From: Promethearchaeota archaeon
GTDB lineage: Archaea > Asgardarchaeota > Lokiarchaeia > Sigyniarchaeales > SOKP01
Length of the DNA stretch: 43,840 nt
NCBI GenBank assembly: GCA_048938445.1
Contig: JBHLME010000021.1
Coordinates: 1-43,840, forward strand
Direction of reading: 5' to 3'
Below, piece after piece: positions 7,480 through 41,869 of this stretch (position 1 is the first letter of the stretch; every line of letters starts with the position of its first letter). The position numbers and the translations under genes were made by a program. Under the pieces are notes generated by a model. That model saw nothing but the letters and a program-made list of their open reading frames with translations. It searched no databases and was not told the DNA's origin.

Positions 7480-7550
7480 TGCGTCCGGCGGGGATCGAAC
7501 CCGCGTCACCAGCTTGGAAGGCTAGCATGCTACCGCTACACTACGAACGC
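7480..7550 (-). tRNA. tRNA-Gly(TCC)
   Basis: Reverse complement GCGTTCGTAGTGTAGCGGTAGCATGCTAGCCTTCCAAGCTGGTGACGCGGGTTCGATCCCCGCCGGACGCA folds as a cloverleaf; anticodon loop CT-TCC-AA; T-loop TTCGATC; no intron; CCA not encoded. Confidence 0.97.
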
Positions 7551-40559: not shown

Positions 40560-41030
40560 TTGATATGTTTGAGTTATTCTCGGGATGAACAAATATTAAA
40601 AAAAATTATAAATACGATTATTAATAGCACGGCAGGATTGATACATGTTCTAATCGTAGATGATACGGGAATAACCATTTTAAGTGAGTCTAAATTCCAT
40701 TTCATGGATAATGATACTACAGTGGAGAAAATCGGTGCTATAGGAAGCGCAGTATTCATTGCTAATGAAGAACAAGGGCAAATTTTAGGATATGGAAATA
40801 TAGGAATTCAAATAACGGAATACGAGGATGGAATGATTTTTTCAGCAAAAGCAGGGAATGGTGTATTATGCATTGCCACAGATCCGAACGTTCAAATAGG
40901 ATTCATACGAGCTATATTAAAGAAGTATGCTCCAACGGTAACTAAAGTATTGTCCAGTTATTTAAAGCAAGAACAAGTTTCATTAAGTGACGATATAAAA
41001 GAAATTTTATCAGAAGATTTGACATCCTAA
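40560..41030 (+). CDS. Roadblock/LC7 (MglB/LAMTOR-like) protein
   Basis: LIHVLIVDDTGITILS..EKIGAIGSAVF..QITEYEDGMIF..GVLCIATDPNVQIGFIRAILK. Confidence 0.85.
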   Translation: MICLSYSRDEQILKKIINTIINSTAGLIHVLIVDDTGITILSESKFHFMDNDTTVEKIGAIGSAVFIANEEQGQILGYGNIGIQITEYEDGMIFSAKAGNGVLCIATDPNVQIGFIRAILKKYAPTVTKVLSSYLKQEQVSLSDDIKEILSEDLTS

Positions 41031-41081
41031 ACAAAAATTACTTATTTTTAAAATTAAGTTCCAAATTTAAAAGAATAATCA

Positions 41082-41367
41082 GCACGTATTGTTGCCTGAG
41101 GCACTAACACAATTTTTTCACTTATAGGGAATACCAAATAATCAAAAATGTTCTCTCGTGTCAGGCGATAATTTTCATGCCTTTTTGGGACATAATCTGT
41201 TAGCAACCTGGGTACTGACTCACACCTCATCGCTTTGGTACTTACCTTTGCTTGGTAAAGAGCCCATTTTGTTTGCCTATAATGATTATTAAACTCAGGA
41301 TGTATGCACTTCTTTGCACTTATAATCATCTAAGCATCATATAAGTCCTCGATAATGCAGATGTTCC
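41082..41367 (+). ncRNA. Candidate structured non-coding RNA of unknown family
   Basis: About 38% GC (114/300 counted over 41081-41380). Nested helices with G-U pairs that work only on the + strand, including a 12-bp stem 41088-41099/41161-41172. Confidence 0.5.
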
Positions 41368-41416
41368 TTCATTGCTTTCCCAATATACATATAACTTATG
41401 TTAAATAAAAAGATTT

Positions 41417-41869
41417 TCATCTATTTTCCATTCTATCAATTAAGCTACTCAGACAATTTAATAATACATTTTTTATCTTTTCATAGCATATGTCAATCTC
41501 TATATCATCCTCACGAAAATCATCAAATTTGTAAAAAGCTTTAAATATTTTTGGTGTAGAAATAATTTTTTGAGTCGCATCTACTAAAAATGACCACGTT
41601 AGTCTTGAATCATATTCGATTTTCATTATTAAGGATAACATGGCCATTTCTCTATTACCTCTAGCCCACTCTGAATGAACTTCGAAATACAAATTTAAAA
41701 TTCTCTTTTTCCTATTAATTAGAACGATTTCAAAAAAGGTTTCATTTATGTCCAAATCAAAAAACTTCATGAGCCTAAGTATGATGTCTTCCTCTAACTG
41801 TGCATCTGGGAATGATAAAAAAATTGATGGACCTTTGATTCGATTGAAATATGTAAGAACTAAATGCAT
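41417..41869 (-). CDS. Longin/uDENN-like protein
   Basis: N-terminus MHLVLTYFNRIKGPSIFLSFP resembles the F-x4-GP hairpin of uDENN/NPR2-type longins; later strands LNLYFEV and MLSLIM. Confidence 0.55.
   Translation of the reverse strand: MHLVLTYFNRIKGPSIFLSFPDAQLEEDIILRLMKFFDLDINETFFEIVLINRKKRILNLYFEVHSEWARGNREMAMLSLIMKIEYDSRLTWSFLVDATQKIISTPKIFKAFYKFDDFREDDIEIDICYEKIKNVLLNCLSSLIDRMENR

Follow-up and report, generated by a model that had tools for sequence, protein, structure and literature searches.

The 43,840-nt stretch analyzed here (the window; contig JBHLME010000021.1 of a Promethearchaeota archaeon) contains, at positions 41031-41416, a gap between two convergent genes. We find that this gap very probably encodes, on its minus strand, a single-copy, three-hairpin box H/ACA guide small RNA (sRNA) of ~310 nt, a divergent homologue of the archaeal RNA that goes by the names HgcG, Pab40, Pf7 and Afu4 (Rfam family RF00064). 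The evidence consists of conservation across the family, class and phylum of the source organism, covarying helices, the anatomy of the hairpins, and complementarity of two of them to large-subunit (LSU) ribosomal RNA (rRNA). The homology to RF00064 rests on a two-step link, first through R1, our covariance model of the whole RNA, and then to RF00064, together with the shared anatomy. An earlier note, made from the letters of the sequence, had described the gap as a structured RNA on the plus strand, associated with its neighboring genes. It had caught a true signal, with the strand wrong, much of the fold wrong and the association wrong.

A conserved non-coding RNA gene

The gap holds a real, widely conserved non-coding RNA gene of ~310 nt on the minus strand. 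Its G+C content of 38-40% stands out from that of neighboring intergenic DNA (15-25%) and of genes (30-37%), a contrast that the earlier note had reported from letters which are all found where it placed them. A BLAST search with a single DNA query returned one copy each in 121 of the 134 other genomes of the family, in 13/13 genera, and none among 19 genomes drawn from three further families of the order. When homologues were sought with nhmmer, as had been suggested, all 19 fetched loci matched over about 320 nt. In both searches the conservation stops at the borders of the RNA gene, and in its own genome the element is present once. R1 matches the window at 41074-41383 (-) with 315.8 bits, and it gave full-length, one-per-genome matches in 127 of the 151 genomes of a class sample (6/13 in family f2, 0/1 in f3, 2/3 in f4, 2/2 in f5, 0/3 in f6 and 2/2 in f7). 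In the phylum sample R1 matched 62/151 genomes, among them 37 of the 125 outside the family, and these span 13 further families.

The minus strand also carries a 91-aa open reading frame (ORF), and the gap could be taken for a small protein gene, perhaps one in which this frame is joined by a frameshift to a 27-aa ORF at 41337-41420. Both frames are open in the window's genome, and the G+C content and GC skew of the gap resemble those of minus-strand genes. The 91-aa ORF has, however, no Pfam match at E up to 1. A six-frame search matched it in 29 of 36 same-family genomes and in 0 of 24 genomes outside the family, and the frame is interrupted by 2-9 in-frame stops in 16/16 of the relatives' matches of at least 60 residues. 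Since stops occur in every match of that length, the conservation is at the DNA level. Insertions and deletions in the alignment described below do not come in multiples of three, and the changes are paired rather than codon-wise. We therefore regard a protein gene as extremely unlikely, and the preference of the earlier note for a structured non-coding RNA over this ORF was well placed.

Covariation, fold and strand

The structure model was set out on A3, an alignment of 58 sequences (the family set), and consists of 15 helices with 60 pairs. In this set 92.6% of the cells are paired and 39/60 pairs show compensatory change on both sides. Not one of 500 shuffles comes up to the alignment in any of the five measures, and in slid controls the paired share is 34-40%. 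The top pairs of a mutual-information scan all lie inside the set-out helices, and no (long-range) pseudoknot appeared in that scan. In a phylum set of 29 sequences, whose alignment was fitted to the model and hence leans towards it, 88.3% of the cells are paired and 54/60 pairs are compensatory, with 0/500 shuffles as good.

The covarying helices, read on the minus strand, contain 201 G-U cells versus 66 A-C cells. The earlier note had used G-U pairs to argue for the plus strand, and on the alignment this argument points the opposite way. RNAalifold gave -33.5 kcal/mol for the minus strand versus -21.7 for the plus strand on a 20-sequence set, and the near-invariant GA/GA letters of the kink turns (K-turns), as well as the ACA motifs, are present on the minus strand only. 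A TATA-like box precedes the minus-strand 5' end at a fixed distance: a TTTWWW word begins 28-31 nt upstream of a GGG in 49 of the 54 sequences (out of 58 examined) whose GGG could be located, and in 39 of them the distance is exactly 30 nt. The RNA would begin at GGGAAA, and its 3' end probably lies a few nt past ACA box 3, inside a T-rich tail. A run of four T occurs in the 3' tail and flank in 37/58 sequences.

This evidence also bears on a plus-strand reading, in which the gap would be a structured 3' untranslated region or a non-coding RNA tied to the operon of the adjoining Roadblock gene. The element does lie just after the Roadblock stop, convergent to it at the RNA 3' end, in 35/37 family loci, and Watson-Crick helices read alike on both strands. 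Yet the G-U and A-C counts, the alignment energies, the strand of the K-turn and ACA motifs and the fixed TATA-like box all favor the minus strand. Among class-level loci the Roadblock gene adjoins the element in only 2/12, the neighbors being different in 10/12. We consider this reading very unlikely, and with it falls the proposed link to small-GTPase-regulator genes; the adjacency of the Roadblock gene is read as inherited gene order, not as a functional link.

Of the fold that had been drawn by eye, three helices are real and covary: the core GCCTGA/TCAGGC (our helix C1), CAC/GTG (C2) and ATGATTAT/ATAATCAT (the outer helix B1). Others find no support: AGGGAATA/TGTTCTCT, the closing helix GGGACA+TCTGT with GCAGA+TGTTCC, and TGGGTACT/GGTACTTA are 64-79% pairable on the plus strand, for the most part by G-U pairs that do not vary and with no compensation, and one of their partner columns covaries elsewhere (174-182; GC 41, AU 11). 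The loop TCACACCTCAT, which had been likened to an anti-Shine-Dalgarno sequence, is the complement of the K-turn box GAUGAGGU of hairpin 2.

Anatomy of the three hairpins

We read the RNA as an H/ACA guide because each of its three hairpins combines a lower stem, an internal loop that forms the pocket, an upper stem, a tandem-GA K-turn or kink loop (K-loop), and an ACA that immediately follows the lower stem (Table 1). The ACA boxes lie at 41301-41303, 41198-41200 and 41090-41092 (-). The outer A columns of boxes 1 and 2 (103, 105; 222, 224) are identical in 58/58 sequences, while in box 3 A357 is found in 57/58, C358 in 53/58 and A359 in 58/58. The GA/GA letters at twelve columns of the four K-turn-type motifs are present in 48-58 of the 58 sequences. 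In the K-loop of hairpin 1 we counted G55 in 55/58, A56 in 57/58, G76 in 57/58 and A77 in 58/58; in the K-turn of hairpin 2, G192 in 58/58, A193 in 53/58 and A166 in 57/58, with column 165, the partner of A193, being variable (A 27, U 15, G 15); and in the tandem GA of hairpin 3, G284 in 48/58, A285 in 58/58, G319 in 54/58 and A320 in 54/58. At the level of sequence these motifs are K-turns or K-loops, and they are predicted L7Ae sites. The helices of hairpin 1 are compensatory in 5/5 and 6/8 pairs in the family set, as are 5/5 pairs of helix 7 in hairpin 2.

The fourth motif lies at the base of hairpin 1. It consists of a C-like AAUGA(N)GG, a D-like C(N)GA and a covarying 4-bp stem (7-13/112-115), and thus has the C box, the D box and the closing terminal stem of a box C/D K-turn. 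Its G17 and A18 are invariant (58/58), G110 occurs in 56/58 and A111 in 58/58 sequences, and pair 13-112 is CG in 26, UA in 19 and UG in 12. In the phylum set all pairs of its helices A1 and A2 (7/7) are compensatory, as are those of the outer helix B1 round hairpin 2 (6/6, with 94.8% of the cells paired). We found in the RNA no 10-12 nt single-stranded guide upstream of D or D': the D-like box abuts ACA box 1, and what precedes the D'-like UGA is taken up by the covarying upper stem of hairpin 1. A C/D methylation guide was rejected because it would have no free guide stretch, despite the C/D-like K-turn. The outer helices are a variant feature and not needed for guiding; they may act as a clamp for the short AU-rich lower stem, or provide an extra L7Ae site.

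The rules for archaeal H/ACA motifs ask for an upper stem of 5-6 bp and an ANA box 14-15 nt from the target U (Muller 2008, PMC2377435). Hairpin 1 follows them, with a 6-bp upper stem and a 3' pocket that starts 14-15 nt from the ACA. By hand count, the ACA-to-pocket distance in hairpin 2 is 17 nt in the window, and in the homologue of genome G184 15 nt separate the ACA from the first guide base. The distance in hairpin 3 is 17-18 nt by hand count, or 15-16 nt without the 2-nt bulge of its lower stem.

Two further observations concern hairpin 3. In one genus (L029, L006, L034, L010, L016) a 10-nt GUUUCGGCUC-like insertion occurs at the lower-stem bulge (A3 columns 339-348). One genome carries a partial, hairpin-3-like second copy (G125:C17:42365-42489; L041/L076) ~470 nt from the full RNA gene, which scores 42 bits with nhmmer and 50.8 bits with R1.

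Relation to RF00064

At Rfam gathering thresholds the gap has no match, as the earlier note had expected; at E-value thresholds Lnt and CncR1 appear at E about 4, which we attribute to chance. The same note had called the RNA undescribed, and this is contradicted by its distant homologues: of 20 phylum-level loci fetched, 9 align to the full length of RF00064, scoring 21-50 bits (E from 1.3e-11 to 0.015). The RF00064 and R1 scores run opposite, the best RF00064 loci being the weakest R1 loci, which is what a continuum of divergence would look like. The alignments to RF00064 have pocket letters in common in every hairpin, namely cGAgGa and GCGA in the first, uAACCC in the second and UGUUA in the third, and the three H/ACA motifs come in matching order with matching pocket letters. 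The RF00064 consensus structure is without the C/D-like K-turn round hairpin 1 and without the outer helix round hairpin 2; the outer helices are also absent from loci L125, L133 and L136, of which L133 and L136 are the two best RF00064 scorers.

RF00064 is HgcG, which is the same RNA as Pab40 (PMC4652768), and Pab40, Pf7, Afu4 and Pho40 are described with three H/ACA motifs each (PMC2377435). According to the same source, motifs 1 and 3 of Pab40 are active guides in vitro, motif 1 for position 2588 of Pyrococcus abyssi 23S rRNA (domain V) and motif 3 for position 2016 in stem-loop 69, and an earlier proposal that motif 2 of Afu4 acts at position 2601 of A. fulgidus is disputed (PMC2377435).

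RNase P, MRP, SRP, U3 and U6-like readings were considered and rejected, given that the RNase P and signal recognition particle (SRP) RNAs are encoded elsewhere and that the mutual-information scan showed no long-range pseudoknot. The RNase P RNA matches RF00373 at contig C161 (120.5 bits) and the SRP RNA matches RF01857 at contig C135 (67 bits, below the cut-off); neither family matches the gap.

Predicted rRNA targets and machinery

No small-subunit (SSU) or LSU rRNA was found in the source genome (G000, a 96.5%-complete assembly), and the scans therefore used rRNAs of other family members, the LSU from G029 and the SSU from G137. An SSU match at E up to 1e-100 was seen in only 27/135 family genomes.

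Hairpin 1 is predicted to direct pseudouridylation of a 23S rRNA uridine two nt 5' of a conserved CCUCGAUG in the peptidyl-transferase centre. At U2717 of the G029 LSU, the 3' strand GCAA of its pocket pairs with UUGC and the 5' strand UAUCGAGG with CCUCGAUG, leaving UN unpaired in CGGCUUGC[U]UCCUCGAUGUCG. This 4 + 8 bp arrangement (12 bp, of which 11 are Watson-Crick) was the top match for the window's pocket in a bipartite scan, and the target is kept in 5/5 LSUs examined. The predicted target of hairpin 2 is the A-loop uridine in GCUG[U]UCGCCCAUU, LSU U2776. There, AAUGGGC/GCCCAUU forms 7 bp and CAGU(A)CCCA/UGGGGCUG forms 8 bp with one bulge, around GCUG[U]UC with UNN unpaired. The latter duplex, on the 3' side, was paired by hand from the printed letters and not by scan; in the bipartite scan the site reached only 4 + 7 bp and ranked second with the G029 pocket and sixth with the window's pocket. 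In the energy scan for hairpin 2, U2776/U2777 ranked first. The rRNA reads GGGGUUG and the guide CAACCC in G197, G184 and G280, compared to GGGGCUG and CAG(UA)CCC in G029, and this amounts to one guide-target compensatory change (CAA/UUG to CAG/CUG). By numbering offsets, the site of hairpin 1 presumably is position 2588 of P. abyssi; the sites published for this RNA would likewise correspond to the peptidyl-transferase-centre and A-loop sites, and these two may match pseudouridines of eukaryotes. For hairpin 3 just two matches turned up, both unproven: its GUUA can form 4 bp with UAAC next to the loop U of helix 69, together with a non-canonical pairing of GAGAG and CUCUC, and LSU U986 offers a candidate of 11 bp.

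In three of these genomes the LSU match is interrupted. The interruption is ~370-390 nt long and at the same query place in two (G184:C1:2005467-2005854 and G280:C86:16591-16970), and the match is also broken in G197 (C5:339181-339554). This may be an rRNA intron or an insertion in domain V.

The source genome encodes the proteins of an H/ACA particle, namely Cbf5 (DKCLD domain, 67 bits), Nop10 (51 bits) and two L7Ae-family proteins, all above Pfam cut-offs. From the conservation, covariation, motifs and complementarities that we observed, we infer transcription, protein binding and modification as follows. The RNA would be transcribed from its own TATA promoter. In each hairpin the K-turn or K-loop would bind L7Ae, and the ACA box and lower stem would bind Cbf5-Nop10(-Gar1). 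The two strands of the internal loop would hybridize to the rRNA flanking a uridine, and Cbf5 would convert this uridine to pseudouridine.

Several results weigh against the guide reading or against its tie to RF00064. As to the family, the nine bridging RF00064 matches are all under the gathering score of 77 bits, the window's own copy has no RF00064 match at E up to 10, 0/12 class-level homologues match RF00064 at E up to 1, and 88 of the 125 non-family genomes of the phylum scan are without an R1 match. As to the structure, hairpins 2 and 3 exceed the 14-15 nt ACA distance in the window's lineage, and the single-sequence fold is no better than shuffles on either strand: RNAfold gave z = -0.93 on the plus strand, where 40/200 shuffles fold equally well, and z = +0.03 on the minus strand, where 99/200 do. 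The earlier note had itself named folding no better than shuffles as a finding that would speak against its structured RNA, and the folding result, taken alone, is such a finding. As to the targets, the rRNAs scanned come from other family members, and hairpin 1 of G029's own RNA forms a 3' guide duplex of just 3 bp. The energy-only target scans beat shuffled guides only modestly for hairpins 1 and 2 (shuffled guides did as well in 4/40 and 2/40 cases, and in 34/40 for hairpin 3), block-wise RNAduplex of eight conserved stretches against rRNA was not better than shuffles, and the hairpin 3 pocket gave nothing beyond chance against SSU, LSU, 39 tRNAs, RNase P RNA and SRP RNA.

Some of these observations would be in keeping with an H/ACA-type ribonucleoprotein whose main job is to assist ribosome assembly as a chaperone or scaffold, its conserved loops being contact sites for pre-rRNA or proteins. 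The loop letters GAGAGAAC and GUUAGUG of hairpin 3 are invariant in spite of there being no canonical target, and guiding requires neither the two outer helices nor the extra K-turn. On the other hand, hairpins 1 and 2 have canonical bipartite complementarity to conserved LSU sites, including the one compensatory guide-target change, and the homologous Pab40 motifs 1 and 3 guide in vitro (PMC2377435). We judge a mainly chaperone-like role to be quite unlikely and retain the H/ACA guide reading.

Neighborhood and feature coordinates

The plus-strand gene on one flank of the gap has weak Pfam matches to MAPKK1_Int (21.7, cut-off 25) and Robl_LC7 (18.2, cut-off 23). For the minus-strand gene on the other flank, which had been called longin/uDENN-like, Pfam gave no match below E 0.1. 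In two other families of the class (L105, L106, L108, L113) a TRM5/TYW2-type methyltransferase gene is convergent to the RNA and adjoins its 3' end in 4/4 loci. The ATG of the 27-aa ORF at 41337-41420 (-) overlaps the TGA stop of gene 41417-41869 (ATGA), and the ORF, which covers the RNA promoter and 5' end, is probably due to chance. The sole above-threshold Rfam match in the window is a tRNA gene at 7480-7550 (-) (RF00005, 65.8 bits).

Table 1. Features of the predicted H/ACA sRNA gene and of its surroundings, in window coordinates
Feature	Position	Strand	Description
Whole H/ACA sRNA gene	41074..41381	-	From the R1 match and the BLAST/nhmmer borders
TATA-like box CTTTTTATTTAA	41401..41412	-	Overlaps the stop-codon region of the upstream gene 41417-41869; putative promoter
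Basal box C/D-like K-turn, 5' half	41365..41378	-	C-stem AAGC 41374-41377; C-like box AAUGAAGGA 41365-41373
H/ACA hairpin 1	41301..41359	-	Lower stem UGCAU/GUGCA; pocket UAUCGAGGA / UGCAAAGAA; 6-bp upper stem; K-loop (UGA ... AUGAU)
Basal K-turn, 3' half	41291..41300	-	D-like UCCUGA 41295-41300 right after ACA box 1; C-stem GUUU 41291-41294
Outer helix B1, 5' strand AUAAUCA	41283..41289	-	Pairs with 41192-41197
H/ACA hairpin 2	41198..41278	-	Lower stem AGGCAA/UUGCU; 5' guide ACAAAAUGGGC; K-turn GAUGAGG with ACCAA; apical stem-loop; 3' guide CAGUACCCAGG
Outer helix B1, 3' strand GAUUAU	41192..41197	-	Follows ACA box 2 immediately
Variable linker between hairpins 2 and 3	41167..41191	-	Partly deleted in several family members, e.g. 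L014, L017, L045, L061, L065, L074
H/ACA hairpin 3	41090..41166	-	9-bp lower stem (6 + 3 bp, 2-nt bulge); pocket GAGAGAAC / GUGUUA; upper stem AUUUUU/AAAAAUU
Hairpin 3, upper part	41142-41143 with 41118-41119	-	Tandem GA; apical 4-bp stem; hairpin 3 holds helices 12-15 of the family set
91-aa ORF	41054..41329	-	Overlaps with the RNA; regarded as a chance frame rather than a gene
Roadblock-like gene	40560-41030	+	Weak Roadblock/MAPKK1_Int Pfam matches, under curated cut-offs; one flank of the gap
Upstream gene	41417-41869	-	Called 'longin/uDENN-like' in the earlier note; other flank of the gap

Comparison with known RNAs

If the guide reading is right, an apparent orphan is removed: the gap would hold a housekeeping rRNA-modification guide, which is not a new RNA class and is not tied to the GTPase-regulator-like neighbors. 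The current Rfam model of HgcG/Pab40 misses the whole class of the source genome, and H/ACA RNAs are thus under-annotated in these AT-rich archaea; the 58-sequence alignment and R1 could seed a wider family. The analysis also yields two concrete pseudouridine predictions in LSU rRNA. Our searches for an Asgard non-coding RNA of similar kind found nothing specific within the limited set of literature that they covered.

The RNA resembles HgcG/Pab40/Pf7/Afu4 in having three H/ACA motifs in one molecule of ~270-320 nt, with an ACA after each and a K-turn or K-loop atop each. It differs in that it is AT-rich, in that the window's copy and those of its class reach no Rfam score, and in the 5' guide of hairpin 3. 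The two covariation-supported outer helices round H/ACA units, one of which is a C/D-like K-turn, form an arrangement that is absent from the Rfam consensus. Its unit is that of the single-hairpin archaeal H/ACA sRNAs, such as Pab91 and Afu46, which are described with a lower stem, a pocket, an upper stem of 5-6 bp, a K-turn or K-loop and an ANA box 14-15 nt from the target U (PMC2377435, PMC4652768). The window's RNA, however, joins three units, two of which have longer ACA-to-pocket distances of 17-18 nt and elaborate apical parts. Pab21 and snoR9 of Pyrococcus likewise combine a C/D-type K-turn and an H/ACA unit in one RNA, and Pab21 is reported to occur with or without its C/D motif (PMC2377435, PMC4652768). 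In Pab21, however, the C/D RNA adjoins the H/ACA motif, whereas in the window's RNA hairpin 1 lies between the C-like and D-like boxes, with no space for a methylation guide.

Eukaryotic small Cajal body RNAs (scaRNAs) such as U85 are composite C/D and H/ACA transcripts. A bolder extension of the guide reading, which we hold to be unlikely, would place hairpin 1 and its ACA inside a true C/D K-turn that recruits L7Ae and perhaps Nop5-fibrillarin, with hairpin 2 inside a second clamp helix. The ancestral three-hairpin RNA would thereby have turned, within this archaeal phylum, into a composite particle that installs pseudouridines at peptidyl-transferase-centre and A-loop positions. These positions we take, again from numbering offsets, to be modified also in eukaryotes, and such a particle would be a prokaryotic counterpart of the nesting found in scaRNAs.

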